Assembly (NCBI GenBank): GCA_951406725.2
Contig: OX597822.1
Coordinates: 86,924,001 to 86,988,000, forward strand
Source of the DNA: Octopus vulgaris
Taxonomy: Eukaryota
Length of the DNA: 64,000 bases
Direction of reading: 5' to 3'
Below the pieces are notes generated by a model that had not been told where the DNA came from, made no database searches, and worked only from the letters and a program-made list of their open reading frames with translations. Position numbers and translations under genes: made by a program. Shown here piece by piece: positions 3,524 to 43,644 of the stretch (position 1 is the first letter of the stretch; every line of letters begins with the position of its first letter).

Positions 3524-3750
3524 ATATATATATATTTGTATGTATGTATATGTGTGTGTGTGTGTCTATCTATCTATCTATGTGTGTGTATATATATGTA
3601 TATATAAGTATATATGTATGTATGGATGTATATATCTATATATCTAAATATAAATGGACAACAAAACCAAGGCAAGATGAGTATCTCAGTCATTTAAAAT
3701 ATTTAATTAGAGTAAGGTGAATCAAAACACGGAGATGTAGAATTGATTAA

Positions 3751-3828
3751 TGTCTTACCTCAGTTTCTGGGACATCCCGGGTGAGGGGTCAGCATCTCCA
3801 TACACTGGGTATTCCGTCATCAGAGACA
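3751..3828 (-). ncRNA. Type I hammerhead ribozyme, intact core
   Basis: Minus: ugucu-CUGAUGA-cggaauaccc...gggauguccca-GAAAC-ugag-GUA-agaca; 5-bp stem I. Confidence 0.8.
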
Positions 3829-3923
3829 AGGAGTGTTTGCAGGAAAGATCCAGACACAGACTACTGTTTTATTCTTCTATCTACTGGGAATTTTCTGTCT
3901 GGAACTTTCCTGCATACACACCT

Positions 3924-4001
3924 TGTCTTTGATGATGGAATACCCACTGTATGGAGATGTCGACCCATCATGTGGGATATCCCAGAAACAGTTGTAAGAC
4001 A
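3924..4001 (+). ncRNA. Type I hammerhead ribozyme, C3U-mutated copy
   Basis: Plus: ugucu-UUGAUGA-uggaauaccca...ugggauauccca-GAAAC-aguu-GUA-agaca. Confidence 0.7.
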
Positions 4002-4341
4002 CTAATCAATTCTGCATCTCTGTTTTTTGATTCACCTTACTCTAATTAAATATTCTAAATGACCTGAAATACTTGTCTTGCCTTGGTTTCGTTGTCCAAG
4101 CCAACTACGGATCCTGAGCTCCAGCCTCAGCTGTGAACTTTGAACCTAACATGTGACCAATTATTGCACTTATGCAGTGTACCTATTCATTTATATATAT
4201 ATATATATATAAATTTTATATATATATATATATATATAAATATGAGGAGTTTAGTTCACTGATGATCTAAACGAATAAGTACACTGCATAAATACATTTA
4301 CATACATACATACATATGTCTCTCTCTCTCTCTCTATCTCT

Positions 4342-9470: not shown

Positions 9471-9484
9471 CATGAACTGATAAT

Positions 9485-11405
9485 CTGTTTCTTGTGTGTC
9501 CCTAATGTTTATTGCTTCTGCACATGTCTTCCAAATACAAACACTACTTTCTCTTAATCTTCCTGTGATTCTACTACACCCCTTGTGTGTCCGTAGCTTG
9601 CACTGGGTACTCTATGAAATTTCTGCCTACATCTTTCCTACATATTGAGCAGCGTCATTTACCTGAAGGGATAGCGTCCTCTCTGTTTTCCTGCTTATTG
9701 GAACATAGGTCTTTGCTAAGTTAGTTTTAAGGCTCTTCGATTCCAAGTTTTGCTTTCACACCAAGAATTTCTATTCTAATTCTATTATAGATCCTGCTAT
9801 GAGAATGAGGTAATTGACATATAATAGTTCTCAAGAGCAGCTGGTCTTAAATTCCTGTTATAGTCTGAAGGACAATGATGAATAGGAGTGGACTGAGAAC
9901 CAAGCCCTGGTGAACTTCTACCTATACCCTAAATTAATCACTGTACTCATGGCTAACTCTCACCTCACTGACTGCACCCTGTACATGGCTTGAATGGCAT
10001 TCACAAGCCGTTTGTCTTCTTCTAGCTTCTTCAGAGACCACCAGATAACAGAACAAAGGACTGCGTTAAGAGCTTTCTCCAGATCAACAAATGCCAAGTA
10101 CAATGGCTTACTTCTAGCTAAATACTTCTCCTGTAGACTAAGAAGATGACATCAATAGCCCTCTGCATCCCTCTCACATGAAGCAAAGCTGCATCACATC
10201 TTGTCTAATTCTGTTCTTCATTAAGAGGGTTATAACTCTCTCTGTAACTTCCACCTGGTCCTGCAATTTGATACCTCTCTAATTACTTTCTCTCCTGGCA
10301 TCTCTTTTACCCTTGTAACAATTGACTATAATGCTGCTATACCACTCATTGGGTATGACACTTTCCTGTACAACCTGATTAACTATACAGGGGACTAGGC
10401 TGTGTGCTACTCTGCCGGATATTTTAAGCATTTCACTGATGATTCTTGATGGACCAGGGACTTTCCCATTCTTCATATCCTTAATTACCTTAACTATCAT
10501 ACTGCTGCTAACTAGGATAGCTTCTCCTTCCATTGGGTTCACATTGGGAAGACTTTCCTTTCTTCATATTTAATTGCCTTTCATTGTAGCACTTTCATGC
10601 CTCTTTCTTTCCAGAATCACTAAAAGTGCAAGTGTACCTTTATCCTTCCACACATTCACTTCTCTCCTACAACATCTTGATTCTCACTTATAGACTGTCT
10701 TGCGATCCAGAACATCTCATGCTTCTGATTTTCATGCTGTAAGACATTGGCAAACCACTTCCTTCCTGCTCCTACTCCTTACTAGATAAACACATTCATT
10801 AGCTTCCCTTCCTGGCCACCTGATATACCACTTTAATTTTCCAACACTTGCTAAACCTGTCCGTTCACTTTGAGGGCCCTGTCCACCTCACTGTTCCACC
10901 ACTGTGTCAACCTTGGTCTGGCTGGAATTTTGACCCAACTTCATATTGTACCCCTTAATAGGTTGTCTCATAAGAACTTCCAGTATTTCTCTATGTTATC
11001 TCTCTCTCTCTCTTCCTTCTCATCAAATACTTCAGTTAGAACTTCTCTAAACTTCTGATTGTTTACTGAATCATTAAGCTTCCATATTCTCCTTTTCCAG
11101 ACTGGCTTGTATCTCTGAATCTTTCTAAACCTAAGTCTGAAGTTAACACTAAACTCTGTTGAGTTGTACATTCTGCACCATGGAAGGACTTTGCATTTAC
11201 AAGCATCTGCCTGTCCTTGTTTCTGATGAAAATATGGCCAATCTGGCTTGTGTACCTACTAGATTAACTAGATTAACAGTGGCTGGCTGGCTGGTTTGCT
11301 GCAGTTAGTGTTGCAGATCAGCAAATCATTTGCATTATGGACTTCTAGCAGCCTTCTTCTTTGTTCTCTCCTCATTTCTGAAACCAGAGTCATAAGTATA
11401 CCATC
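9485..11405 (-). mobile_element. Decayed RTE-clade LINE (endonuclease-RT region)
   Basis: KYLARSKPLYLAFVDLEKA, MKNGKVPGPSRIISEMLK, LSPLLFIIVLQ, with frameshifts and stops. Confidence 0.9.
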
Positions 11406-13458: not shown

Positions 13459-13753
13459 CATCATCATCATCATCATCGTTTAACGTCCATTTTCCATGCT
13501 AGCATGGGTTGGACGGTTCAACTGGGGTCTGGGAAGCCAGAAGGCTGCGCCAGGCCCAGTCTGATCTGGCAGTGTTTCTACAACTGGATGCCCTTCCTAA
13601 CGCCAACCACTCCGTGAGTGCTTTTTACGTGCCACCTGCAAAGGTGCCAGACGAGGCTGGCAAACAGCCACGATCGGATGGTGCTTTTTATGTGCCACCG
13701 GCATGGGGGCCAGATGAGGCTGGCAACGGCCACAATCGGATGGTGCTTTTTAC
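13459..13753 (-). mobile_element. RTE 3' end with internal ~60-bp subrepeats
   Basis: (CAT)n tail; repeated gtgctttttacgtgccacc...gaggctggc units. Confidence 0.85.
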
Positions 13754-15319
13754 AATATATAAATTTAAATTTAAAATGAGGGTGAGAAATTAGATGTTAA
13801 TTTAATTAACATCGATTTCACACCAGTGGTCTAGCATATAAAAAAACTGAAGGTTCAGTAAAATTGTATTATATACATATTAGAGGGAAACCACCCTTAT
13901 GCTAGAAATAGATCCGCTGTGGTCTTATCACTAAGAAATGTTCTCAAGAAAAATTTAGCCAAACAACCAAAATGTAATCGAGCAAGACAAAAGAAAAAGC
14001 AATGAAAACATGGATTATTCGCATACATGTTTCACTATTAACATATTACGTAATTTTACTTACATAAATGTCCGTAGGTCATCAGTGCGACCGTCTAGAT
14101 GAATATAATTTGCAGGACTGCATACTACGTGTTCATTCACACTTACATTCAACAGAACATGTAAGCTTCATTTCTTTCCAGTCTTCTCATGTCCTCTGCA
14201 TTCAAGGTTCAAGTCTCACTACCCCACAGTATCACAGTAGTAGCTTCGTATAATCTACCTTTCACTCTGAGGGAAAAGACTTTTGTTGCCAGCAGCAATG
14301 GTAACTATTGGTTGCATAAGAGTAGAATTGTTGAAGGTGACAACAAGTGAATCAATAATGTATAATAAAAAGTGGAGGTGATATAACCAAGTTTCCACGT
14401 ATATCAGAGTCAACAGCTCAACAATGTGATGCTGCAGTTGGACAGAAAGCTTTTAATCCAAGAGAATTCCATAGAATCAGCTTGGTGAATATTGCAACAA
14501 AGATAAGTACCAATGTACCAGTGGTTCTCATAAATGAATCTTCTTACGCTAAAGATATTCATAACTGATCAAACCTGAGTGACTTCTGATCTGTCTGTAG
14601 ATGAGTTAATCAAATATTTTTCATCTTCCTAAAGTTCACAAAATAAAAATGGTCTTTCCAGCAGTTGACTCTTTACAATCTTTAATGTTCTTATCTCCTT
14701 TACTGTCAACAAGAAACAAGACAGACAGATAAGCTGCAACATTATAATGTTGATCATTGCTCTTGTTGTATTGTGTAACTTCAATATGAGATGAATCTTA
14801 TGATCTTAGGACCTTGAACATGCTAGCAGTGTTACTTTATTGAATGCACCCAATGCTTTAAAGAAGTTTGCTTTAAACATTAATTGATCTGTATTCTCAC
14901 AGTCAACAGTATTACTTAATAGCAATGACAGAGGAGTTTGTTCCTTTGAGGTTTTTCCTGCTACTTGTTGACCAGTCCAGGACAGTAAGATTGGGGAACT
15001 TATTTCATGTTGGCTCTCTAATATTGATATCCAGTTTCTAATCTCAAAGAGATGCAAAACTACTCCAAGAGCTGATGTGCCTGTGCACTTGTACACTCTT
15101 CTCTTTGGCTACTGTGAAGTTTCATATTTATAATTTCAGATTTTCCTTCTTAAGGATCTGATAACTGGGTTTGAAAAGAAAAATGCAGTTGAGTTCTGTA
15201 CTTACTTTAAATATGCCAAATCTGGTAATACTGGTAAATTCATTGCTATCTGGTGCCAGAACTGGTCATCTTCTCTGTGTTGACTTCACATTTCAACATC
15301 ATCATTATTCAGTGCTGAA

Positions 15320-15530
15320 AAAGGCAGCGAGCTGGCAAAACCATTAGCATGCTGGGCAAAATACTTTTGTCCATCTTGACATTCTGAGTTCAAATTCTGT
15401 GGTGGTTGACTTAATCTTTCATCCTTTCAGGGTCGATAAATTAAGTACCAGTGAAATACCGGGGTTGAATATAATTGATTAGTCTCCTCTCACAGGGTTT
15501 TAGGCCTTGTGCCGTTAATAGAAAGGATCA
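15320..15530 (+). mobile_element. SINE family C
   Basis: ggcagcgagctggc..ctgagttcaaattc..tttcatcctttc.gggtcgataaattaagtacc. Confidence 0.8.
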
Positions 15531-15923
15531 TTCAATGTTGATCCAGCCCACTGTTTTGATTCTTGGTGCCAATATGGTCGGCAATCTGACCTGGCCAATG
15601 ATACATGATTATTTATGGCAACTATTTGAAAAGGACTTTCATCATCTTCAGGAATAGCTTAAACCATTGTGGTAAATACACTAATATGAGTGTTTGTTGT
15701 AATACAGATGTATCACCATCATCATCATCACAGCAGCGATAAAAAGACATTGATTAAACTTCTCTCACTCTACTCTAACCTTCTAATTGGCCCTTAAAAA
15801 TGCATTATATTCTAGTTTGGTTTCAAATTACAACCATCATTGGCTATAATGAAGGACTGGAAATGAGACTAAATTCAGGGAATTTATTAGTGAATAATCT
15901 GATAAATGAAAGGGATTTATTAA

Positions 15924-16345
15924 TTTACTCTTTACTCTTTATTCTTTTACTTGTTTCAGTCATTTGACTGCGGCCATGCTGGAGCACCGCCTTTAGTCGA
16001 GCAAATCGACCCCCAGGACTTATTCTTTGTAAGCCCAGTACTTATTCTATCGGTCTCTTTTGCTGAACCGCTAAGTTACGGGGATGTAAACACACCAGCA
16101 TCGGTTATCAAGCAATGCTAGGGGGATAAACACAGACACACAAACATAGACACACGCATACACACATATATATACATATATACGACAGGCTTCTTTCAGT
16201 TTCCGTCTACCAAATCCACTCACAAGGCATTGGTCAGCCCGAGGCTATAGCAGAAGACACTTGTCCAAGATGCCATGCAGTGGGACTGAACCCGGAACCA
16301 TGTGGTTGGTTAGCAAGCTACTTACCACACAGCCATTCCTGCGCC
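15924..16345 (-). mobile_element. Full-length SINE family A
   Basis: tRNA-like head (ggctgtgtggtaag / gggttcagtccc), internal (TG)n, (AAAGAGT)-like tail; many homologues in the window. Confidence 0.9.
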
Positions 16346-17498
16346 TATTGAGATCAAATGAAGAAGAGAATGATATTACTATGGTGTTTGAATAAGATAT
16401 TTTACAAATATAAGACCTTTGAAAGACCTGGAGAGACAAGAAGTATGAAGGTTTGAGCACAATGCAAACATGGTTATAGAATTGTTAGTCAAGGCATTGA
16501 AGTGATAAGGGTTGATAGGATTGTAAGTATTTAATGCATTTTTCCCTTTTTTAAAACAATAGGATATAATTTGAGGGGGTGTTGTAAACTATTTATAGCA
16601 TGCTGAGGAACCAGCTAGGAGTTGATTTAATGGTTTGTGTTGGTAGGTGTTGTAGCAATTCATTTCTACAGACAACAATAAAGGACATGGTGGTAGCAGT
16701 GGTGGTAAGCAGCAATTGTTGTTGGTATTGTTAATGGTGGTGGTGTTTGATGAGCGATAGTATGATGCAAGCTACAGTGATAATTGCAATGATAAAAACC
16801 TCTGGTGACATTGATCTGGTAATCTAGAACCTCACTATAACATTTAGCTACCTAAATGGAACTAATGAAAAAGCTGGTTTAGTCTCTAAAGATAAAAGAT
16901 TTTAGTGATATTAATTACAACTAAATTCAGAAGGATAAGAGTAATAATAAGATTTGGCCAGATTGTTAACGCTTGGTATTGATATTAAATTTCCAACACA
17001 GCAACTTTGTGTGGGTGTAAAACTTCATAAATTTAGGTACTTTATAATCATCATCATCATCATCGTCAATGATCTGACATCTACTTTCATATATTAGCAT
17101 GAGTTGGACAGATCTTTACAACATATCTCTCCACACAGATCTTTACAAAAATGTCAGCTTTTCATCAGATTTTCTTTGATGTACAAATGTTCTTAGCTTC
17201 ATCAGAGATGCTTCTCCCTAAACTCTACAATGCACTTTTTTCAACTCAGCATTTTTTTTTTTTGGTTTTTGTCTATTTACATTAAATTATCAAACCACAA
17301 GTCATCTCTTCACCTAAATCTGCTTCAGCCAATGTAAAATTACTCACTTTTTGGTTTTTACCTTCAATTATTCTCACAAGTTAACTTCTGTCGTATTCCT
17401 GAATATGTATAAAAACAATACATTTCAATAGGTTCAATAAGGCTGATAGAAATAAAAATATTTATCTGAAGGTTAATAACCTGGAAAATTATATCATA

Positions 17499-17856
17499 CT
17501 AGCACTATGATCCGGTAATGCTGGGTCATAGTGTATGCATATACAGCTGCGTGCGTGCGCACATACATGCGAGTACTGTCCAAATCTCTGACCAATCACA
17601 TACAGCTAGCTGGCATTCAATTGGCGTATCAAGTTTCGGGCATTTTGATTGGGTTTTGGATAGAAAATTCACAAAAAAGTCACTTCTATTGATTTTTTAA
17701 TGGCTTTGCGGGGTGACTGGGGAAATGTAAAGATGTGCACGACCACCCTTGGACAGTTTTGAATGACCATAGAAAGTGCGAGCCCTCTAACTGAAAAATT
17801 GTGGATTTGTATAAAGGACACACACACAGACATTTTGCTGTTTATATATATAGAGA
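17499..17856 (-). mobile_element. Non-autonomous Helitron
   Basis: Minus: A^TCTCTATATATATAAA ... subterminal hairpin ... CTAG^T; near-identical to 42270-42627. Confidence 0.85.
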
Positions 17857-18478
17857 TTAGATCTTTTGATCTAATGTTAAGCAACAAATGTTAAGCAACT
17901 ACATTTAAGGAGAAGGTAGTGTTTCATGTCCATTCATTCTTGATGAATAGATCTCTCATCAAAGAGTCCAATTATGATCACCTCATATTGTTCTCACACA
18001 AAGTGCATTTAACATTATACAATACGTCTTTTAATAAGTAGGTAGGATTTCTTTGAGGGAAATTTTCATACATTCGTATACAGAACAAAGCATTACTTTG
18101 AATTATTTTACAGTTCATGCTTCAAATTAGTCCATCATTTTTTACTCATGTTCACTACTTATGTTAAGTGACAGTTTTTTAGGATGTGTGTGTGTGTGTG
18201 CATTTTATATTTGGAGTACATATATACAGTTGTGTTTGTACATATTTCACTGAATTTTGATTTCTATAAACTTTCATGTGGAAACACACCATCATCTGAT
18301 GTGTACAGATACCCAATCAAGGCTATTTACAGCATTATAGGCATCTGGGCATATCACTGGGCTCTACAGTATAGATTTATTGATAGCAAGTCACAGCATT
18401 GATTAGAATTAGACCCATAAATTTGTAAGGCCCTCTGCAAGCTGCTTATTGAGCCTATGTCTCAAGGCATATATGGTG

Positions 18479-18511
<33 letters not shown>

Positions 18512-18563
18512 TATGTTAGCTCCTACACACATTTTTTTTCTCTCCTTGTTTCTTTTCTGTGTA

Positions 18564-18601
18564 TCTTTCTGTCAAAGAGTGTAGGCTCAAAATGTAAAAG
18601 A
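18564..18601 (+). ncRNA. Decayed minimal hammerhead-like motif in a TA-flanked element (18520-18700)
   Basis: ucuuu-CUGUCAA-agagu guag gcuc-AAAA-ug-UA-aaaga; restoring CpG transitions gives CUGUCGA..gagc/gcuc..GAAACGUA. Confidence 0.45.
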
Positions 18602-18698
18602 CTTGTTCTATTTCTATTCCTGAGCGCCATACTAATACATTTGTTTGTTTGTACTCCACCTGCCTTCGTCTTTTGTTTATTTTCATAAACCTTCCTGT

Positions 18699-18731
<33 letters not shown>

Positions 18732-18774
18732 TTAGTGAGGGAAGAACGAAGATTTTACAAAATTCCTTTTTATT

Positions 18775-18860
18775 ATTTTCTACACATGTTTCAAAGGCTG
18801 CAAATTCCCTAATTCGGATTGAATAAGGAGGCCATTTTGCAGCATTCTCTTCAGGAAAAT
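18775..18860 (-). ncRNA. Type I hammerhead ribozyme, intact core
   Basis: Minus: auuuuc-CUGAAGA-gaaugcugcaaa...uuugcagccuuu-GAAAC-augu-GUA-gaaaau; 6-bp stem I. Confidence 0.8.
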
Positions 18861-18911
18861 CCAGGAACTTAAATCTCCAAACAAATGCGCAGCAAGCTTT
18901 TCGAACAAACG

Positions 18912-18965
18912 CTCCCTAGGAGCCCATGGTATGAATGGCCATTCATACCATGGGCTCCTAGGGAG
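18912..18965. repeat. Perfect 54-bp palindrome, no spacer
   Basis: ctccctaggagcccatggtatgaatgg|ccattcataccatgggctcctagggag. Confidence 0.97.
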
Positions 18966-19222
18966 AAAATAATAAAAAGGAATTTTGTAAAATTTTCGTT
19001 CAGCTCCATTTCTTCCCTCACTAAATATAAAACTTCAATTATCCGCACTAAGGCATGGTTGCGATACCCCATGGTCGTAACCTCAACCGTAATTTTTCTG
19101 TTGTGATTTTTGCTACCCATGTATCGGTTATAATTTGAATAATCCGTAACAAGATAATTCATTTATCCATTTCATTAAATATATATATATATATACATAT
19201 ATATCATAATGATGATGATGGT

Positions 19223-20562
19223 ATCATTATCATCATCATTTAATGTTCTCTGTCCATGCTGGCATGGGCTGGAGGGTTTGACCAGGGCTGGTAAGCTGGA
19301 GAGCTGTTTTGGCACAGTTTCTATGGCTGGATGCCCTTCCTAACACCACCCACTTTACAGAGTGTGTTTGGTGTTTTTACATGGCACAGCCATGAATACT
19401 TTTTATGTGGAATCTGCATACGACTCTAGCTGGTCAATCCTCGCCACCAGGGAGGACCAATCTTAGCACTTCTACTGAGGAGTACAGGTCTTCTTTCTAC
19501 CAGGCATCTGGGTCCTTTGTTATCTCACCTGAAAGGTTGAGCATCCTGAAATTGTTCTTCAGTACTTCATCTCATGTCTTCCTGGGTCTCCCACTTCCAC
19601 ATGTTCCATTTACTTTGAAAGATCAGCACTTCTTTATGGAGCTGTCAGCATCCATCTACATCACATGACCAAACCAGCACAATCTTCTCTCTTGCTCACA
19701 ACATTTAATTCCTCTTATGCCTAACTTCTCTCTCAAAACACTAACACTCTGTCGAACAAATACACTTACATTACACATCCAGCAGAGCATAATAGCATCA
19801 TTCCTTTCTAACCTTTGCATGTCCTCTGCATTTAGGGCCCCCATGAATCATACAATTTTCCTTTCACTCGGAGAGAGAAACCTGTCATAGCCAACAGAAG
19901 TAACAGCACTCTGAATTTCCTCCATCCTATTCTTATTCTAGCTAATACATTCTCCTTACATCCTCCCCAACAACTAATTTGGTCCCCTAAGCAGCAGAAA
20001 TTATCCACTACCTCTAATGAGCCACCAAGGCATTTGAGAGAATCAATTTCCTGAGTCTCTGTAGTTTTTATGGTGCCTGTGCATCTTCCACATATCAACA
20101 TTACTTTCTCTGATAACCTTCCGATTAACCCACTGCACCTCTTGTGTGTCCATAGCTTACACTGGGTACACCATATGGAGTTCCTGTCTACACTTTTCCT
20201 ACTAATCGAACGGGGCCACCTACCTGAAGGGAGTAGGGTTCTATCTGTTTTCTTGCTTACTAAGACCTTAGTCTTTGCTAGTTAACCTTAAGGCCCTTAG
20301 ATTCCAGGTTTTGTTTCTATACCTGGAATTTATATTCTTTCTCTGATATGGAATCTTCCATGAGGGCAAGATCATCAGCATATAGTACTTCCCAGGGATG
20401 CCGGTCTTGGATTCCTCTGTTATGGTCTGGAGGACAATGATGAAAAGGAGGGGACTGAGGACTGAGCCTTGATGAATTCCTACTTGTACATCAAATTCTT
20501 CACTATATTCATGTTTAACTTCCACCTTACTGACAGCATCTCTGTACATGGCCTGTACAGCT
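19223..20562 (-). mobile_element. 5'-truncated RTE LINE (RT C-terminus, 3' UTR, tail)
   Basis: VGIHQGSVLSPLLFIIVLQ; RIRIGWRKFR; LERNDAIMLCWMC..RRLCWFGHVM. Confidence 0.9.
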
Positions 20563-20582
20563 TATATATATATATATATACA

Positions 20583-20730
20583 GGCGTTAGGAAGGGCATC
20601 CAGCCGTAGAAACACTGCCAGATTTGACTGGGCCTGATGAAGCCTTCTGGCTTCACAGACCCCAGTAGAACCGTCCAACCCATGCTAGCATGGAAAACGG
20701 ACGCTAAACGATGATGATGATGATGATGAT
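20583..20730 (+). mobile_element. Young RTE 3'-end fragment
   Basis: Nearly identical to 42106-42250; CpGs intact. Confidence 0.9.
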
Positions 20731-21540
20731 ATACATATTTTATCATTAATTAAAATCTTAGGGTAGCAAGAATATTCATAGAAAAATTCTTAGTTACCAG
20801 TGGTCTAGCGAGAAAGAAAAAATTAGTCAATAGACTATATATTATTCAAAGAAGAATACAGTGTACGTTCAAACACAAAAGAGATACCCGAAGAATAGGA
20901 TATCTGACTCGCTAGAAATAGCAGTTAAAACTCCAAGCCACCAATTGTTGTAATTCCGAAAGTGATTGGAAAATAAAAACTTTTACCGTAATCCTATATA
21001 TATATATATCAAAACATAAAGGAATAGGGATTTGAAATCCGAGCAGGTACCTTAATCCAGATCTGGCTAACCACATTGAATGATAGGGAACATACAGAAT
21101 TAAGATAAAGAATCACATGATACTTCATGATAGATAAATCCTGAGTTCACTCCATTGGATTTCATACAGTGTACTTTGGTTTGATTACACACACACACAC
21201 ATCCCTCCTCCACACAGGGAGTAATTTATTGCACAGCTTCTGTCTATTAAACTCAATTCAGAAGACATTGGTCAATCTGAGTTTATAGAGACAGACAGCA
21301 TTATATTTACGGTTGGGAAGTAATCTTTGTCACCATACTGCCATAAGGTAGAGAACATACAGTGCATTCAACACTGGGCATACATACATTACTGCATGAA
21401 AATACACTGGAACATATAAATTGCTCCTTGGAGAAGCAACCTTGTAAAAAGGGTTTGTTTTCCACTCAATGCTGATATATATACATACAGACATTTCATA
21501 AATGCCAGTGCATGAAACTGTTGGACTTTGAGTTAGTCTC

Positions 21541-21774
21541 TTACTTCTATTTTACTTTTTTACTTGTTTCAGTCATTTGACTGCGGCCATGCTGGAGCAC
21601 CGCCTTTTGTCGAGCAAATCGACCCCAGGACTTATTCTTTGTAAGACTAGTACTTTATTCTATCGGTCTCTTTTGCTGAACCACTAAGTTATGGGGATGT
21701 AAACACACCAGCATTGGTTGTCAAGCGATGTTGGGGGGACAAACACAGACACACAAACACACGCACACACACAC

Positions 21775-21806
<32 letters not shown>

Positions 21807-21937
21807 GATGGGCATCTTTGAGTTTCTGTCTACCAAATCCATTCACAAGGCTTTGCCCAAAGTGCCACGCAGTAGGACTGAACCCGGAACCATGTGGTCG
21901 GTAAGCAAGCTACTTATCACACAGCCACTCCTGCGCC
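21541..21937 (-). mobile_element. SINE family A
   Basis: Homologous to 15924-16345. Confidence 0.9.
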
Positions 21938-22764
21938 TATCTGCTAAATATTAATAAAAAATATATATGCCAATGAAAAGAAGACAAAGAAAATTCCTTA
22001 ATACATCTTTAATTATCAGTTACAAATGTTTCCATACCATCTCCATTTGCAATGCCAGTTTATGTGAAAATTTTAAATGAAAAATAAAGTAATATTTGAG
22101 GTTTTCGACATTAGAGAGGTATTTTGTCAGACTTGCATCAAAAGTGTGCTATTACATCATGCATTCTTCTGACCTTGTTGTTAGGAAAATATCAGGTGGA
22201 AATAAAAAGTAAAATTTAAAAGTGTGACTGCAGAATGAGTATATGAATAATAATGAAAAGATGTAATTTGTTATGGGAAATAACTCGACTTTTAGATAAC
22301 TTTCCTCACTATCTGTCACTATCAATCTATCTCTCTCTATATATTTACCACACTCTTTGTCTCTCTCTCTCTCTGCATATGTATTAACTCTGATGCATTG
22401 CTTTCATTTTGTTTAAGACCTAATCTTCTAATTCTTACTTTCATTTTATCACAGCTATCATGTACAAATCCTGTTTTCTGATTGGGTAAAAATGATCAAA
22501 CTTTAAACCTCTGTAACATTTTTCTAAACTCTTTCTGGAATAAATGAATTAAACTCATATTCAGCATGAAAAAGTACATCAATATACCAAATTTAGAAAT
22601 TTTCACTTAATTTTAAAATTTCAAAATCTGTGACTGCAACAGAAAACATCTCTCTTTCTCTCTCTTCCAGTTTTTACTTTTCCCATAGTAAACTTTCCTT
22701 CTTTCTATATATATTTACCACACTCTCTCATTCTTTATAAAAATACATTGCTCATGCTGAGTGT

Positions 22765-22814
<50 letters not shown>

Positions 22815-23556
22815 AATCATGTCTGTAAGGGAATTTCATTAGGACGACAGGCTGATTTTAAAAAAGGATGTAAAAGTTTATTTTAATAGCATACTTTTCT
22901 GTTTGTAAATATGTTTTTTTTTTGCACACACATGGCCTTGCTTGATGTGAGGTGTTGGGTGGTTAAAAATTTAAATTACAAAATTTTTGTTGTTGCTTAA
23001 ATCCCAGCTGTGGATGACTGCATCATTGTTCTATAAAATGTGTTTATGGGGGAGAAAAATATTGAAAAATATCAATGCATGTCAGAGTGACAAAGAAACA
23101 AGGAAGGTACATGGTGGTCATGGTATGTGCTGGAAACAACAACTAAGTCTCCCTTAAATCACACCTTTTCATAAGAAAATTATAAACAAAAACAAATTGC
23201 AGATTTGGACTGTCTGCATTTAAAACTGTCAAAAAAAAAAAAAAGAATTAGAAAAAAGAAGCCAAAAATTTTAGGATTTATGCAGGGCCAGGGTTAATGA
23301 AAAAATTAAAAACGATTTCACTATTGCCTAAATCAATTTCATTTTTTGTTTGAAAATAAGTTAAAAAATTTTTTTTTCATAAAAAGCCTCCCGCCATCAA
23401 TTTCAAAGGTTTGGTGGAAAGAAAAAAATTGTAAAATCCCTGAGAGAAAATCTAACTTTATGTAGGTGTGCTATTCCGAAAGTGAGAATTGCCCAGCAAC
23501 GACAGGATACACAGAATATACATATACATAAAACATACATACATATATGTTTGTGT

Positions 23557-23597
23557 GTATGTATGTATGTATGTATGTATGTATGTATGTATGTATG

Positions 23598-23687
<90 letters not shown>
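23557..23687. repeat. (TATG)n(TATC)n(TA)n microsatellite
   Basis: Direct reading. Confidence 0.95.
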
Positions 23688-23690
<3 letters not shown>

Positions 23691-23752
23691 ATAATAAATA
23701 TTAGGGAATAAATCCAAACTTACAGGGAAAAATCAGATTTAGGATTGAATCC

Positions 23753-23797
<45 letters not shown>

Positions 23798-23983
23798 CAC
23801 AGACACACATATATGTATGTATATTTTATGTATATATATATTCTGTGTATCCTGTCGTTGCCAGGCATACATGTGTATATATTACATACACATGTATTAC
23901 ATATATTGTACATACATGTGTATATATTACATACGCATATATACAAATACACACATATGCACATAAATAATAAATACATACAC

Positions 23984-24026
<43 letters not shown>

Positions 24027-29852: not shown

Positions 29853-31212
29853 ATCATCATCATCATCATCATCATCATTTAACATCTGTTTTCCATGCTG
29901 GCATGGCTTGGATGTTTTGACAGGAACTAGCCAGCTGGGTAGCTGCCCAGGCTCCAATTATCTATTTTAGCACCGTTTCTGTGGATGCTCTTCCTAATGC
30001 CAACCACATTACAGAGTGTAGACTGGGTGCATTTATGCAGCTTCAGCGTGGGTGCTTTTATGTGGTCCTGGTATGTGTGGTTTTCCATGTCATCAGCATG
30101 AGTGCTTTTTATATGACACCAGCACCTGTGAGCCTTCCAAGTGAAGGACCTTTTTCTGAGAGGGGGATGTAGTGGACATGGTTGTATGTATGGACAGCCA
30201 CAGTTTTACTTAGTTTGACATGTCTTCTTATACACAACAAACCGTCAGTGGTCTTGGTCGCTTATCGTCTCCTTTGTGAAGTCCAGTGTCTGAAGATCTT
30301 TTCTCACCACTTCATCCTGCATCTTCCTGGGTTTACCTCTTCCACAGGTTCCCTCCACATTTGGAGATCAGAACTTTTTTATGCAGCTGTCCTCCTTCAT
30401 ATGCATCACATGATCATACCGGCACAGTCTTCTCTCTTGAATTACTACAACAGATGCCTTTTATACTCAATTTTTCTCTTAAATCATTTACACTCTGTTG
30501 TATATGCACACTGACATTACACATCCAGAGGAGCATACTGGTTTCATTTCTTTTAAGCCCACACATGTCCACTGTAATCATAACCCCTGTTTCACTGCCA
30601 TGTACCATAGCTGTTTGTACACAGGCATCATCTACCTTTCACTCTGAGGGAGAAGCCCTTTGATACTAACAAAGGTAGAAACTTTTTCCAGCCTGTTCTT
30701 ATTCTAGTAACTAAGCTTTCAGAACTTCCTCCTCCACTGCTAACTTGGTTGCCTCAGTAATAGAAGCTATCTACTACTTCTAAAGACCCTCCCCAGACAT
30801 TTGAGGAAGTCTATTCTCTACATTCTTAGTGTTTATTATACCTGCACATCTGCCACACACAAAGACTACTCTCTCTGTTAACCTTGTTGTGATACTGATG
30901 CACCTCTTATGTGTCCATAGCTTACACTGGGTACACTGTATGGAGTTTCTACCAACACCCGTCTTACATATTGAGTAGGGCCATCTCCCTGAAGGGATTT
31001 GAAATTTGTCTGTTTTCCTATTTACTAGAACTTTAGTCTTTGCTAAATTAACCCTAAAGCCCTTTGATTCCAAACTTTGTCTCCACACTTGAAGTTTCCT
31101 CTCTAGTTCAGGTAGTGATTCAGCAATAAAAAAAAGGTCATTAGTGTAGAGGAGCTCACAAGGGCATCGAGTCTTAAATTCCTCTGTTATGGCTTGGAGG
31201 ATTATGATAAAC
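29853..31212 (-). mobile_element. 5'-truncated RTE LINE
   Basis: FIIILQAITEEFKT.CPCELLYTNDL..LESKGFRVNLAKTK, Cys-rich insert CTQCKLWTHKRC, 3' UTR and tail. Confidence 0.9.
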
Positions 31213-32119
31213 ATTTCTCTGTTATGACCTGTATTAACTAAGTGTTAGTAGAACCAGTCTCTCTCACCGAATACAGTTAATGTCTCTTACTTTTATGTTG
31301 CCTTCTTCTAAATCTTACCATATTAATGATTGAAATTGCATCAGTGCATTGACTATAAAGAGTGGGCTTCAATATACAGCTTCAATGGGGTGGGATCAAT
31401 AATATGAACACTCTCAAGGAAACTTAAAGCATGTATAGACAAAAGATTGACATATTTATGAACACTTATAAAAATGTAGGGACTGTCCATTTGTTAGTTT
31501 TTGACCACCTGGAATCTTTCCTGCTTATATCTTATTGCTATGCAATACCAACCATTTCTTCAAAGGAACAATGTATTAATTGTGAACTAAGACAAGTTTC
31601 TAAATTCTTGCCTTTGGAATATTCCTTTGACTAAGCAAAAGGTGAATATTCTAAGGCGAAAAGAGAAAATCAACTGAATCAGTCCCAGGGTAATAAAACT
31701 ATGTATTTCATCGACTGAAAAGGAATTCCAAAGCTGACCTCTGAGAATTTAAACCCAAAAGAGTTAGGTACCCACTTATTTACCTGAAAGCATTCACATT
31801 AATATTCTACTGCCATCAATATTTTCATCACCCATTTTTTCCCAATGCAATATTACTAGTTGCATGTGTGAATGGTTGATTTTAGAATAGAGAAGTGAAT
31901 TCTTTCAGGGAATTTATCAGTTGTGCATAGCTTTCTTGCAACAAACCAATGAAATGGTAGAAAGGAGATACATGGAAGATGCAATGCATTTAAAAACATT
32001 TATTAAAGATATTTTTTTATGAAGTATAAAGCAAACCAATATTTTAGCAAATCACTAGTTTGACTTGTTTAATGAAGACAAGAATTTAATATTTTATGTT
32101 TGACTTAGATTTTGTTGGA

Positions 32120-33698: not shown

Positions 33699-36054
<2,356 letters not shown>

Positions 36055-38104: not shown

Positions 38105-40815
38105 CATCATCATCATTTAATGTCTACTTTCCATGCTGGCATAGGTTGGATGGTTTGACTGGAACTGGTAAACTGGAGAGCTGCACCAGGTTCCAGTCTG
38201 ATTTGGTATGGTTTCTATGGCAACCACTCCCAAAGTGTAATGGGTGCTTTTTGTGTGCCACTGGCATGGGTGCCATATACATGACATTGGTGATGGCCAT
38301 GACTACAGTTTCACTTGGCTTAACAAGTCCTCTCAGCACAGCTTATTGTGAACAGTCTCAGTATCTTGTCATCACCTCTGTGTTGCTCATCATTCGAAGA
38401 CCATGCTACTGGTCACAATTACAATTTCCTCCAACAGCCACAACTATGATTTCACTTGATTTGATGAATCAAGCACTGCATATCACCAAAGGTCCCAGTT
38501 GCTTGTTATTGCCTCCATGAGGCCCAACGTTCAAAGATCATGCTTCACTACCTTGTTCCATGTCATCCTGGGTCTACCTCTTCTGCAGGTTCCTTCCACA
38601 ATTAGAGATCGGCACTTCTTTACACAGCTGTCCTTGTTCATAAGCATCACATGACCATACCAGCATAGTTGTCTCTCTTGCACACCACATTTGATACCTC
38701 ATATCCATTTTTTTCTCTCAATACACTTATGCTCTGTTGAACATGCACACTAACATTGCACATCCAGCAGAGCATGCTAGCTTCATTTCTTACAAACCTT
38801 CACATCTCCTCTGCAGTCACAGTCCATGTTTCACTGCCATGAAGCATGATTGTTGGCACACAAGCATCATACAATCTGCCTTTCATTCTGAGGGAGAAGC
38901 CCTTTGTTACCAACAGAGGCAGAAGCTCTCTGAACTTAGCCCAGACGATTCTTATTCTAGCAGCTATGCTCTCTGTGCATTCCCCTCTACTGCTGACTTG
39001 ATCACGTAGGTAATGGAAGCTATCAACTACTTCTATGTATCCCCCATTGGCATTTGATGGAGTCTATTTTCTGTACACTTGTAGTGTTTATTGTACCTGT
39101 ACATCTAACACACACAAAGACTATTTTCCCTGTTAACCTTCCTACTTACTAAAACTTTGGTTTTTGCTAAATTGACTCTAAGGCCCTTTGATTCTAGACC
39201 TTGCTTCCATGCCTAAAATTTCTTCTCTTGTTCTTGTAGTGATTCAGCTATAAGAACAAGGTCATCCGCATACAGGTGCTCCTAGGGGCTTCTCAACTTA
39301 AATTCCTCTGTTATTGTCTGCAGAACTACCCTGATTAAGAGGTGGCTGAAGACCGATCCTTGGTGAACCCCTACCTATACACTGAATTCATTACTATACT
39401 CATTGACAACTCTCACCTTATTGACAGCATCTCTGTACATGGCTTGTACAGCTCCCACCAACCCTTCATCTACCTCTAGTTTCTGCATTGACCACCAGAT
39501 AAGGAATTGGGGAACTCTGTCAAAGGCTTTCTCCATGTCAACAAAAGCCAAGTACAGAAGTTTATTTATGGCTAGGTACTTCTGCAATTGTCTTACCAGG
39601 AGTATATAACATTAACAGTGCTTCTCCTTGGCACAAAACCAAACTGTATCTTATCTAGACTAACCCTTTCCCTAATTAGTTGGGCTATGACCCTCGCTCT
39701 GAATTTCATCACCTGATCTAAGAATTTGATATCTTTGTAATTATTTTCATCTAAGGATGGAAATAATTACACCAGTCATTGGGTATGACACCTTTTGTGT
39801 ACAACCTAATTATCTATATGGGTGACTAGACCATAACATACACTGCCAGATATTTTAAGCATCTCAGCAGTTATTCCTGATGAGCCAGGGGCTTTCCCTG
39901 TCTTCATATCCTTCATGGCTTCGTCTACCATGCTACTGTCTATTTGGATTACTGGTCCCTCAAGCCAGACTTTCCCTCTCTCATGAGTTCTCCATATTCA
40001 GTAGCCTTTCATAGTGGCATTTCCAAGCCTCCTTCTTTGCAGAGTCACTAACTACTAGTGAACCATCATCCTTGCGAACACATTTGTCTCTCCTGCCACA
40101 TCATGATTTTCTCTGACACATTGCCTTGCCATCCAAAATGCTGCAAGCTTCTGGTTCTCATGACACAGAACACTGCCAAAGTTTCACCTTTCTGCTTCTC
40201 ACCTGGCTAAGTACACCTGTCTTCTAGCCTCCCTCCTAGCTACCTGATATAATTCCCCGCTACCTCCACTCTTCCAGTCCTTCCAGGCTTCTTTCTTTGC
40301 TCTAATGGCCTTGTCTATGGCATCATTCCACTACCACGTCACCCTAGTTCTGGTTGTGACTTTGCACCAACTGCAGATTTGGTTTGTGGCCCTCAGCAAG
40401 CTGTCCCACTGGAATTCCCAGTTGCCCTCTATGTTACATGTCTGTACTTCCTCCTCCTTGCCAAATTTCTCAATTGGGGTGTCTCTAACTGTCTGACCTT
40501 ATAAAGGATCTTTAAGCTTTCAGATCCTTCTTTTCCAGATTGGTCTGCTTCTAGGCAACCTTCTGACCTGAAGTCTAAAGTCACTGATGACTACTCCATG
40601 CTGGGGGTACATTCTTCACCAGGGAGCATCTTTACACCTGTGAGCAACCATGTATCTCACTGTCTGGTGAGAATGTAATCAATCTGGCTTGCATGGTCAT
40701 TCGATTGATAGGTAAGCAGATGACTGGCTGGCTTCCTGAAGTTGGTGTTGTAGGATCATTATGTTATTTGCATCACAGAAGTCCAGTAGCCTTGTTTGTA
40801 GCCTCTTCATTTCAG
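38103..40815 (-). mobile_element. Decayed RTE LINE, longest copy in the window
   Basis: QKYLAINKLLYLAFVDMEKAFDRVP, LYADDL, endonuclease remnant near 40.6-40.8 kb, 3' UTR and (GAT)n tail. Confidence 0.92.
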
Positions 40816-41031
40816 ATATATATATACAGCAAGAAGAAAATGGAAGGGATACAGAACTAGTATGCATCAACTGTTAGACATTATATTATGTCTTTTATTT
40901 ATTCTAAAACATTTATGAGAATAAATACATATGTAAAAACTGTGTATTACATACATACATACCAGTATTATTATTACTCTTCTTATGTACTCATTAATAG
41001 GAATAATGTACTGTACCTACTGGTAAGTAAT

Positions 41032-41078
<47 letters not shown>

Positions 41079-41141
41079 CGGAGATGTATCGCATAGCAAG
41101 TAACTATCTGATTGTGTGCTGAAACGAAAACAATTGCATGG

Positions 41142-41204
<63 letters not shown>

Positions 41205-41269
41205 TGTGTATATGTATATTTATATATACATGCATTAGCCCTCTGAACTTTTTTGACCCTCTTTTAAAC

Positions 41270-41392
41270 TCTCTGATGAAGCCTAGAGGCACACCCAATA
41301 CCCTAATTTTATCTACTGATCACTACAGAACACTGAAGAGATGGAAATAACATGTAGGGTATTGTGACCTCTTGGCAGAAACGGCCGTAAGA
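41270..41392 (+). ncRNA. Type I hammerhead ribozyme with long stem II and palindromic GGCC loop III
   Basis: ucu-CUGAUGA-agccuagaggcacacccaauacccu...aggguauugugaccucuuggca-GAAAC-GGCC-GUA-aga. Confidence 0.82.
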
Positions 41393-41514
41393 AACCGTTC
41401 TTTTTCTATTCTATGAATTACTGGTACGTATGTATGCAATACACAGTCTTTACATATGTATTTATTCTCATAAATGTTTCAGAATATATAAATAGACATA
41501 ATATAATGTCTAAC

Positions 41515-41833: not shown

Positions 41834-42061
41834 ATGTCTAACAGTTGATGTATCCCCTCCATTTTCTTCTTGCTGTATAATTTAAGGGTAAATCACTTTT
41901 TACTCTTGGCCAGTTACTACATTCAATAGTGAAATTGCCGCACAATAACCAGCACTTGGGTATTAATAATTGAGTACAGTACCAGCAGCATATTGCATAG
42001 TCAGTATCCCTAGGTTGGATTCACAAACTCTAACTCTCACTGAATTATATATTATATATAG

Positions 42062-42269: not shown

Positions 42270-42284
<15 letters not shown>

Positions 42285-42627
42285 CGGCAAAATGTCTGTC
42301 TGTGTGTGTATCCTTTATACAAATCCACAATTTTTCAGTTAGAGGGCTCACACTTTCTATGGTCATTCAAAACCATCCAAGGGTGGTTGGGCACATCTTT
42401 ACATTTCCCCAGTCACCCTGCAAAGAATCAATAGAAGTGACATTTTTGTGAATTTTCTATCCAAAACCCAATAAAAATGCCCGAAACTTGATATGCCAAT
42501 TGAATACCAGCTAGCTCTATGTGATTGGTTGGAGATTTGGACAGTACTCGCATGTATGTGCGCACGCACGCAGCTGTACATGCATGCACTAGCACTATGA
42601 CCCTGTGTTGCCGGGTTATAGTGCTAG
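42270..42627 (+). mobile_element. Non-autonomous Helitron
   Basis: Homologous to 17499-17856; terminal hairpin actagcactatgaccc/gggttatagtgctagt ending CTAG^T. Confidence 0.85.
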
Positions 42628-42744
42628 TATATATATATAAAGATGCACTAATATCTTGACATCCTTGTTACTTATTTGCTTTTTATTCACCTACTTCAAG
42701 CTGTGCGAATAATACTGGACTGGCCTAATTCAACTGAATCTTAA

Positions 42745-42775
<31 letters not shown>

Positions 42776-42781
42776 CATACA

Positions 42782-43634
42782 TATGAAGGTGTATTCCAGA
42801 AGTTTTGGAACATTTTTAGGAGAGGCAGTTATAACTGTCTTAGATTATTTTAATTTTAGTGTATCATTACTACACCACTAATAATCTGACCTGCCAACTT
42901 TTGTTATTCCAGATTAAAGGAGATGGCAGTGACAAACCTTTGAAGATACAAACACTGCTTGTCACAGGTGATTTGTTTGCAGAATGCAATCCAGATGTGA
43001 AGACAATTTGGAAGCTCACTTTGCAATAAAGTTTTGTGTTTAACTGGGCAAAAATGCTACAGAGACTTATGAAATCCTCCAGACTGGTCATGGATTAAAT
43101 TGTATGAACTGAGCATATGTTTTTTGCTGGTACAAGAGGCCAAGCAGTGCAAGTCTACAGAGAAGCTCATGCAAGTCCCCTTTCTTGATAGCAAGAGCAC
43201 CATCTACATCCACTGTTTTCCCTCTGGAGATTTTGTGGAGATTTTGAGGGAGCTCAGGTAGAAAGATTTCATCACCAGAGGCCAGAGCACCAGCACCAGG
43301 ACAATGCATCAGTCCACAATTCCATCCTGGTAACCAAACTACTTGACAAAGATGGACATCAGAACTGTCATCCCTCACCCTCCCTACAACCCAGACCTTG
43401 CTCTCTGTGATGTTTAGTTGTTCACCCAAGCTGAAGGAGATTATGACAAAGGACTCCGACACCTTCACTTTGGAGGATTCCCACAGAACCTTCACGAAGG
43501 GGATGGAAAGCTACAAAAAGTGTATTGAAGTCGTCAGAGGTTCCTGCTGTGAAGGAGATTAGAGTTTTGTTCTCCTTTGAAATAAATAAATGTCTCAACT
43601 GAAAAGGTCTCAAAACTTCTGGAATGCACCTTGT
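42782..43634 (+). mobile_element. Internally deleted mariner element with TIRs
   Basis: TIRs aaggtgtattccagaagttttg / caaaacttctggaatgcacctt; LGKNATETYEIL, HQDNA and HPPYNPDLALCD remnants. Confidence 0.85.
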
Positions 43635-43644
43635 GTGTATGTGC

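Follow-up and report, generated by a model that had tools for sequence, protein, structure and literature searches.

A probable Penelope-type insertion with head-to-head arms, a predicted hammerhead ribozyme and a perfect junction palindrome in a 64-kb window of Octopus vulgaris

Introduction

Insertions of Penelope-like retrotransposons (PLEs) are described as carrying inverted 5'-truncated copies, as lying in (TA)n targets and as having undiscernible TSDs (PMC8557442), and an insertion layout of the same kind, with terminal pseudo-LTRs (pLTRs) and inverted copies, is found in a further source (PMC2377424). The closest described junctions are those of the Penelopes of Adineta vaga, in which head-to-head inverted pLTRs of ~200 bp, with the inverted copy the shorter one, lie in AT-rich targets, and in which palindromes at the inverted junction led to the proposal of self-priming (PMC3846280). 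These Adineta palindromes measure 18 and 38 bp, and in one arrangement the shorter inverted pLTR overlaps the direct one by 15 bp (PMC3846280). As that study predates the recognition of hammerhead ribozymes in PLEs, its junctions were not placed relative to a cut site.

Metazoan PLEs carry minimal type I hammerheads with a conserved core, a short stem I, a long stem II and a short palindromic stem III that suits cleavage as a dimer; they cleave weakly, as dimers, and are mostly single, with pairs on opposite strands 100–700 bp apart also recorded (PMC4209133). Hydra-clade PLEs combine (TA)n targeting with a sense-strand hammerhead near the 3' end (PMC8557442), which starts within the last 104–183 nt in all 6 newly described Hydra consensus elements in the supplement of that paper. 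On the biochemical side, the PAc protein (Poseidon, Anolis carolinensis) acts on both strands of AT-rich DNA, which it cuts and extends from shared internal reverse transcription start sites, and has been modelled as a dimer (PMC11167929). How the inverted ends of PLEs form, and what the hammerhead contributes, are both named as open questions in the PLE literature (PMC8557442; PMC11167929).

Here we describe a short locus that is in itself a commonplace relic of a transposon, of interest only as a clean and young example. Its geometry suggests a counting test on genome assemblies, namely where the inverted arm starts relative to the ribozyme cut site and whether one template or two were used per insertion.

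Anatomy of the element

The window, by which we mean the whole 64-kb stretch of DNA that was analysed, is AT-rich (GC 0.27–0.41), dense in microsatellites and interspersed repeats, and contains no long ORF. Within it, the unit at 18727–19029 (303 nt) is a gene-less, head-to-head pair of 5'-truncated ends adjoining a (TA)n microsatellite (Table 1). We aligned its arms outward from the centre at 18938/18939. Both arms end at a common terminus and differ by 1 substitution in 82 aligned nt (18751 vs 18994). The right arm is without 130 nt of the left and the left arm is without 11 nt of the right; since each is without something that the other has, neither is a plain copy of the other. The 11-nt difference is most simply a deletion from the left arm. 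Where the leader meets the 3' segment in the right arm, a 2-nt microhomology allows three possible registers for the join, the middle one of which is the scissile bond of the hammerhead. Set against a single substitution, two microhomology-bounded losses would fit jumps at the time of insertion better than slow decay.

Table 1. Features of the element and positions of the other hammerhead-like loci in the window
Feature	Position	Strand	Remarks
(TA)n microsatellite	18699..18731	.	Left end; putative insertion target; last bases merge with the end of the element, boundary uncertain by ~4 nt
Long (left) arm	18727..18938	-	212 nt: 27-nt leader, 130-nt segment with most of the hammerhead, 3' segment
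Left terminal inverted repeat	18727..18781	-	Downstream of the predicted cut; overlaps the hammerhead by 7 nt only
Minimal type I hammerhead	18775..18860	-	Own descriptor; activity predicted
Hammerhead stem I	18860-18855 with 18780-18775	-	6 bp
Hammerhead first core half	18854-18848	-	
Hammerhead stem II region	18847-18793	-	55 nt, 8-bp helix
Hammerhead second core half	18792-18789	-	
Left-arm-only segment	18782..18911	-	130 nt; 2-nt microhomology at edges (18912-18913, 18780-18781)
Perfect spacer-less palindrome, head-to-head junction	18912..18965	.	27+27 nt, centre 18938/18939
Short (right) arm	18939..19029	+	91 nt: 27-nt leader, then the 3' segment after the cut with nothing between
Right terminal inverted repeat / 3' segment	18964-19029	+	
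Right-arm-only 11 nt	18999..19012 (18999-19009 or 19002-19012)	+	Between two 3-nt direct repeats
Locus B	3655-4098	cores -3823, +3929	One hammerhead-like motif per arm; 177/203 columns identical; 39-nt non-palindromic spacer
Locus C	~773-1087	core -939	Older head-to-head pair beside long (TA)n; 105/150 identical
Locus D	40873-41514	motif +41273	Stem II region ~100 nt; 96-nt inverted arm, 96/105 columns identical (also given as 94%)
Locus E	~13870-14100	-, core -14085	Solo, without an inverted arm; 5-bp stem I and palindromic 2-nt loop

The perfect, spacer-less palindrome claimed by the initial annotation was confirmed: its halves (18912–18938 and 18939–18965) are 27 nt each, 100% complementary and 0 nt apart. 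It is the longest of 25 spacer-less palindromes in the window (arms of at least 7 nt, more than two base types), and all of the others with arms of at least 9 nt are microsatellite-like. The longest arm obtained in 200 block-wise dinucleotide shuffles was 17 nt, so that 27 was reached in 0/200, and the analytic expectation for a 27-nt arm is ~1.5e-11 per window. That the palindrome runs directly into the right arm was also borne out, as it has 2 nt in common with the right terminal inverted repeat (18964–18965). The palindrome marks the point at which orientation flips between the arms, and fold-back synthesis as its likely source fits the anatomy.

The (TA)n array lies on the left flank only and the right flank (19030–19178) is unique, with TA-rich bases next to the terminal inverted repeats on both sides. 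There was no TSD longer than 5 nt, nor any word of more than 5 nt common to the two flanks, and the best 10-nt similarity between them was matched by 141 of 2000 random 42-mers. Both arms stop together, and the unique right flank could hide an extension such as the 30–40-bp tail that PLEs optionally carry at one end. No second copy of the family was found in the 64-kb window (blastn, 7-nt words). A search of bacterial and archaeal genomes for an exact 30-nt pattern from the element gave 0 matches, and blastn of the element against plasmids and phages gave none; these negative searches exclude a prokaryotic source only.

A transcript of the whole unit is predicted to fold as a long hairpin (-141 kcal/mol, z -14.8; 0/100 shuffles equally stable) in which the 3' strand of stem I is paired with the inverted arm and not within the ribozyme. 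Under this folding model, a read-through transcript would be a long hairpin that sequesters stem I of the ribozyme, and by extension such a transcript could feed small-RNA pathways. The copy is probably inert at present and without function. We rejected a microRNA precursor, as the best Rfam score (38.3 bits against a gathering threshold of 64 for mir-28) reflects a generic hairpin match.

The hammerhead motif

Our descriptor for type I hammerheads matched one locus in the 64-kb window and gave any match at all in 1 of 100 shuffles. In this motif, both halves of the conserved core are complete, stem III has 2–3 bp around a 6-nt palindrome (self-duplex -6.0 kcal/mol), and the triplet is GUA, which places the predicted cut between 18781 and 18780, at 54 nt from the 3' terminus in the left arm or 65 nt at the equivalent point of the right arm. 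The unit contains one hammerhead, and only the left arm keeps the motif. Pair 10.1-11.1, the first pair of stem II, is G-U and not the typical G-C. At the gathering score, Rfam returned 0 matches in the whole window, and the hammerhead family was absent from the 29 weak Rfam matches at 18600–19200. At -14.0 kcal/mol, the hammerhead fold lies above the minimum-energy fold (-17.1), the pair probability of stem I is ~0.13, and stem II taken by itself exceeds its shuffles in stability only mildly (54/1000 were as good). An unfavoured hammerhead fold together with a weak stem I is usual for the minimal hammerheads described from PLEs (PMC4209133).

The initial annotation had called this an intact hammerhead within the left arm. 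The motif itself stands, with its 6-bp stem I and both core halves; the word "intact" has to be set against the negative Rfam result, the G-U pair and a fold that is not the one of lowest energy. Its placement inside the arm holds when the arm is counted from the centre of the palindrome, which we consider the better reading, and fails when the arm is taken to be the terminal inverted repeat, with which the hammerhead shares 7 nt only.

Assignment to Penelope-like elements

Very probably, the element is an insertion without genes, truncated at its 5' end and built like a PLE end (pLTR), and arranged as a head-to-head pair beside (TA)n. What is expected of the pLTR of an EN+ PLE was found here: a minimal type I core with stems I and II, a short stem III with a palindromic 15.2-16.2 region, a hammerhead near the 3' end, and an inverted, 5'-truncated, head-to-head copy with a common 3' terminus. 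Since there is no attached RT/GIY-YIG frame and no homologue was reached, the element is PLE-type by architecture, and we assign it to no clade. Neither of its 2 open frames matched a Pfam family, and the frame over the hammerhead region had a weak match to an unnamed protein (E 1.3e-4 over 22 residues); of 9 candidates for reaching other copies at the protein level, 0 scored, and a further protein-level search yielded no candidate. A motif scan of 13701–24000 found no GIY-YIG and a single RT-motif match, on the minus strand near 20370, which lies in an RTE-like LINE fragment. An autonomous PLE was rejected on the same grounds, as a single ORF with RT and GIY-YIG endonuclease was not found.

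Likeness to the Adineta vaga Penelopes extends to the head-to-head arms of ~200 bp, the shorter inverted copy, the junction palindrome and a putative AT-rich target (PMC3846280). The palindrome here is longer (54 vs 18 and 38 bp) and perfect, and the locus differs from those described there in that it has no attached ORF and that no TSD was found. With the minimal type I hammerheads described from metazoan PLEs the motif shares the conserved core, the short stem I, the long stem II and the short palindromic stem III (PMC4209133); it departs from them in the G-U pair, where G10.1-C11.1 is usual, in a 55-nt stem II region that is far above the typical length, and in being retained by one arm of the two. 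Departure from G-C at this pair also occurs in the published Hydra hammerhead rows, including that of Hydra-1_Obim, which has the same first core half and the same G-U pair at the base of stem II but differs from our motif in the sequence of its stems and loops (PMC8557442). Three motifs from the element had 0 matches in the supplement of PMC8557442, in which line breaks could hide some, and an identity with Hydra-1_Obim or Naiad_Obim found no support in that supplement. As in the Hydra clade (PMC8557442), a sense-strand hammerhead lies near the 3' end, and the (TA)n array on the left flank is a putative target of the kind described there.

Two further systems were compared. Non-LTR retrozymes are likewise short, non-coding and low in GC, carry a type I hammerhead and have been proposed to derive from PLEs (PMC7229834; 10.64898/2026.07.22.740005). 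They are defined by head-to-tail units, each with a hammerhead (10.64898/2026.07.22.740005), and are arranged as tandem arrays, unlike the single head-to-head unit here; we rejected this assignment, since it needs at least 2 head-to-tail hammerhead units and the element has a single hammerhead and no direct repeat of the unit. LINE-1 (L1) offers a similar case in its twin priming and inverted duplications, in which RT extends both target ends and self-annealed 3' ends prime on very short homology (10.1101/2024.12.14.628481). The element differs from L1 insertions, of which poly(A) tails and TSDs are features. In L1 twin priming the second cDNA is primed internally, which yields an inversion without two identical 3' ends.

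Other hammerhead-like loci in the window

A relaxed core search gave 5 candidate loci in the window, including the element (locus A; the others are B–E in Table 1), and a second scan recovered 4 of the 5, one of them with two motifs, and missed E; both counts are raw, with no shuffle control behind either. The five loci are unrelated in sequence beyond short words, and 4 of 5 have head-to-head arms. A long perfect central palindrome is present in 1 of these 4 pairs. The initial annotation had proposed a survey of the junctions of similar elements; within the window, the head-to-head arrangement proved recurrent and the long perfect palindrome did not. Five unrelated hammerhead families in 64 kb suggest a high genome-wide density, and fold-back hammerhead elements appear to be common in this genome.

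In locus C, a short imperfect palindrome (~935–947) precedes the shorter arm, which starts within the stem II region at ~55 nt before the cut. A start at the cut was rejected there, as the similarity runs ~55 nt further upstream (0/1000 shuffles as good). The shorter arm of locus D starts ~30 nt after the cut, with (TA)n arrays and microsatellites between the arms. Of the 25 positions at which the two arms of locus B differ, 13 fall in the 78-nt hammerhead; this excess is not significant (p=0.19).

Several smaller observations concern these loci. At locus B, the core at +3929 has one change, and the differences between the two motifs in stems II and III look partly compensatory by eye. The stem II regions of all five motifs (A–E, ~44–100 nt) are longer than those in the Hydra-clade rows of the PMC8557442 supplement. 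A 31-nt inverted repeat (40823–40853 / 41849–41879, 97% identical) encloses locus D together with a neighbouring repeat.

Formation of the inverted arms

We tentatively favour an origin from two separately primed cDNAs joined through a short fold-back, with every step and the order of events reconstructed from this single locus and the strands assigned from the orientation of the hammerhead. An endonuclease and a reverse transcriptase, given in trans, would have opened both strands of the AT-rich target, and two cDNAs would have been primed from one 3' start site on the RNA of the element, as the common terminus and the biochemistry of PAc suggest. The left cDNA would have run for ~212 nt through an uncut hammerhead, and the right one would have stopped after ~65 nt. 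Because two antisense cDNAs cannot pair, the left one would have folded back or been joined end to end. It would have copied ~26 nt of itself into a perfect palindrome, and its new sense-strand end would then have annealed to the right cDNA by 1–2 nt of microhomology, after which repair would have sealed the insertion. The palindrome would thus be a short bridge and not the start of the whole right arm. Two primings plus a fold-back of the longer cDNA would give the identical 27+27 halves, the microhomology and the unequal 3' segments without any later changes. Much of the biochemistry is supplied by PAc, including protein-assisted hammerhead cleavage, with the two-primer step shown in vitro only and for the lizard Poseidon element (PMC11167929); self-annealing on 2-bp homology with small hairpins has been proposed for L1-associated inverted duplications (10.1101/2024.12.14.628481). 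Palindromes destabilise DNA, so both arm losses could also be later events.

The initial annotation had read the palindrome as a possible footprint of snap-back, self-primed synthesis, by which the arms themselves would have formed. The idea is not new, as self-priming at junction palindromes is already published for Penelope (PMC3846280), and it agrees in part with what we see: the 27+27 halves are identical, their centre is the point of the orientation flip, and self-annealing on 2-bp homology offers a parallel in L1 inverted duplications (10.1101/2024.12.14.628481). In its pure form, the model has a single cDNA fold at 18938 and serve as its own template, pass over 130 nt by way of microhomology and continue as far as the target junction, with a later loss of 11 nt from the left arm. 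We consider this unlikely, because the arms are mutually incomplete. The right arm holds 11 nt that are absent from its supposed template; with 130 nt missing on the right, 11 nt missing on the left and 1 difference, one continuous snap-back copy needs a second, later event. In addition, the inner end of the left arm alone forms only a 4-bp stem with a 7-nt loop, and a snap-back from it would retain that loop as a 7-nt spacer. For a centred hairpin to be the fold of lowest energy, native symmetry has to extend at least ~7 nt beyond the centre, whereas two ends could pair with each other over 4–6 nt. The spacer-less centre therefore points either to native self-complementarity of ~7 nt or more past the centre or to the end-to-end joining of two molecules. 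The differences within the locus B hammerheads were tried as a sign of two templates and rejected, so that self-copying at that locus is neither supported nor excluded.

Alternatively, both the palindrome and the unequal arms may have had a single origin in a donor element, with the 303-nt unit, or something longer, then copied whole into this site. Some Adineta palindromes are indeed part of the pLTR 5' end of their family (18 bp in Pen2, 38 bp in Pen3a; PMC3846280), and Penelope copies with inverted terminal repeats are described as an active form in D. virilis (PMC2377424). We nevertheless hold such inheritance to be doubtful: the D. virilis inverted repeats vary in size among copies (PMC2377424), the extremely stable hairpin of a whole-unit transcript would presumably make a poor template, and no second copy was found in the window, which is weak evidence at a span of 64 kb. 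A symmetric 212+212 palindrome at insertion, for example from two joined cDNAs that ended at the same RNA 5' end, followed by deletions of 130 nt and 11 nt, one per arm, seems quite improbable. In its favour, end-to-end joining would need no native symmetry to yield a centre free of spacer, microhomology bounds both losses, and microhomology-mediated deletions disable many Adineta Penelope copies (PMC3846280). Against this, the history would combine two sizeable deletions with 1 substitution in 82 nt, would leave the coincidence with the cut site to chance, and would have spared the centre of symmetry. In long palindromes the centre is usually lost first.

Perfect palindromes are a known class of artefact, and inverted structures of PLEs trouble short-read assembly (PMC8557442). 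A fold-back chimera of assembly or library preparation is very improbable here all the same: the symmetry breaks off and resumes, an indel and a substitution lie within it, and it ends at one common terminus beyond which the flanks are unrelated; moreover, three older, diverged head-to-head hammerhead loci in the window (177/203, 105/150 and 96/105 columns identical) indicate that the architecture is biological in this genome. That fold-back hammerhead elements are common likewise argues against an artefact. Barely credible is a MITE-like DNA transposon with 55–66-nt terminal inverted repeats, a TA duplication and a hammerhead-like string by accident; its appeal lies in the terminal inverted repeats with TA-rich bases on either side. 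The repeat, however, begins at the hammerhead cut site and takes in the 3' strand of stem I, a match to the descriptor is rare by chance (1/100 shuffles), and the inner palindrome and the 11-nt asymmetry are left unexplained. Viewed as a MITE or Tc1-mariner element, the locus has TIR-like ends that differ by an 11-nt indel and is single copy in 64 kb.

The overall pattern is one already described for PLEs, and a single detail of it was unexpected, namely the restart of the shorter half at the ribozyme cut site: the short arm resumes at most 1 nt from the predicted cut. The probability of this by chance is ~0.017 per arm (3 registers, 170–185 positions), or 0.06–0.07 for at least one of four arms, for a coincidence that was noticed post hoc and a null that ignores the density of microhomologies. 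A polymerase skip over the folded hammerhead was rejected as the cause of the 130-nt gap: the 3' strand of stem I is retained, and the gap opens ~50 nt upstream of the 5' strand of that stem. Within the window, a start at the cut site was likewise rejected as a general rule for inverted arms, since 1 of the 4 inverted hammerhead pairs does so.

A rather unlikely extension is that the short arm is a "strong-stop" cDNA, for which the reverse transcriptase ran off the 5' end of a hammerhead-cut RNA, with the palindrome as the fold-back bridge to a second cDNA whose template was uncut RNA. The stopping point of the short arm would then be explained by run-off at a cleaved 5' end. The three other inverted pairs in the window start elsewhere, and the PAc system, as described in PMC11167929, speaks against it twice, as insertion in vitro did not need hammerhead cleavage and the RNA-seq reported there had no reads starting or stopping at the cut site. 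We found no report that links the cut site to PLE inverted ends in the open-licence literature that was searched, a body that leaves most subscription papers outside. If a strong-stop did occur, the locus would record in the genome that hammerhead cleavage in vivo shapes the inverted ends of PLEs, and the ribozyme would contribute to the transposition cycle in a way not found by the in vitro work on PAc. Under a strong-stop origin, breakpoints of inverted arms should be in excess at the scissile bond.

Other repeats in the window

The remainder of the window contains decayed elements of several kinds. Related LINE fragments at 19557–20562, 30309–31211, 38543–40816 and 9479–11381 are decayed, and we take them to be RTE-like; a minus-strand frame at 30783–31244 has a weak RVT_1 match followed by a PHD finger. 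A 141-aa plus-strand frame (34995–35420) with a zf-RVT match below the curated cut-off (E 3.5e-5) presumably resembles the C-terminal part of a restriction-enzyme-like LINE, and 162-nt direct repeats are present at 34283–34444 and 35104–35252. The ~870-nt segment at 42775–43642 has 58-nt inverted ends (79%) and broken plus-strand frames with a mariner-transposase-like motif. A 373-nt dispersed repeat occurs in opposite orientations at 17490–17852 and 42273–42635 (88% identical). Two other fold-backs (23490–23867 and 4170–4291), in which no hammerhead was found, consist of short unique inverted ends around (TA)n arrays.
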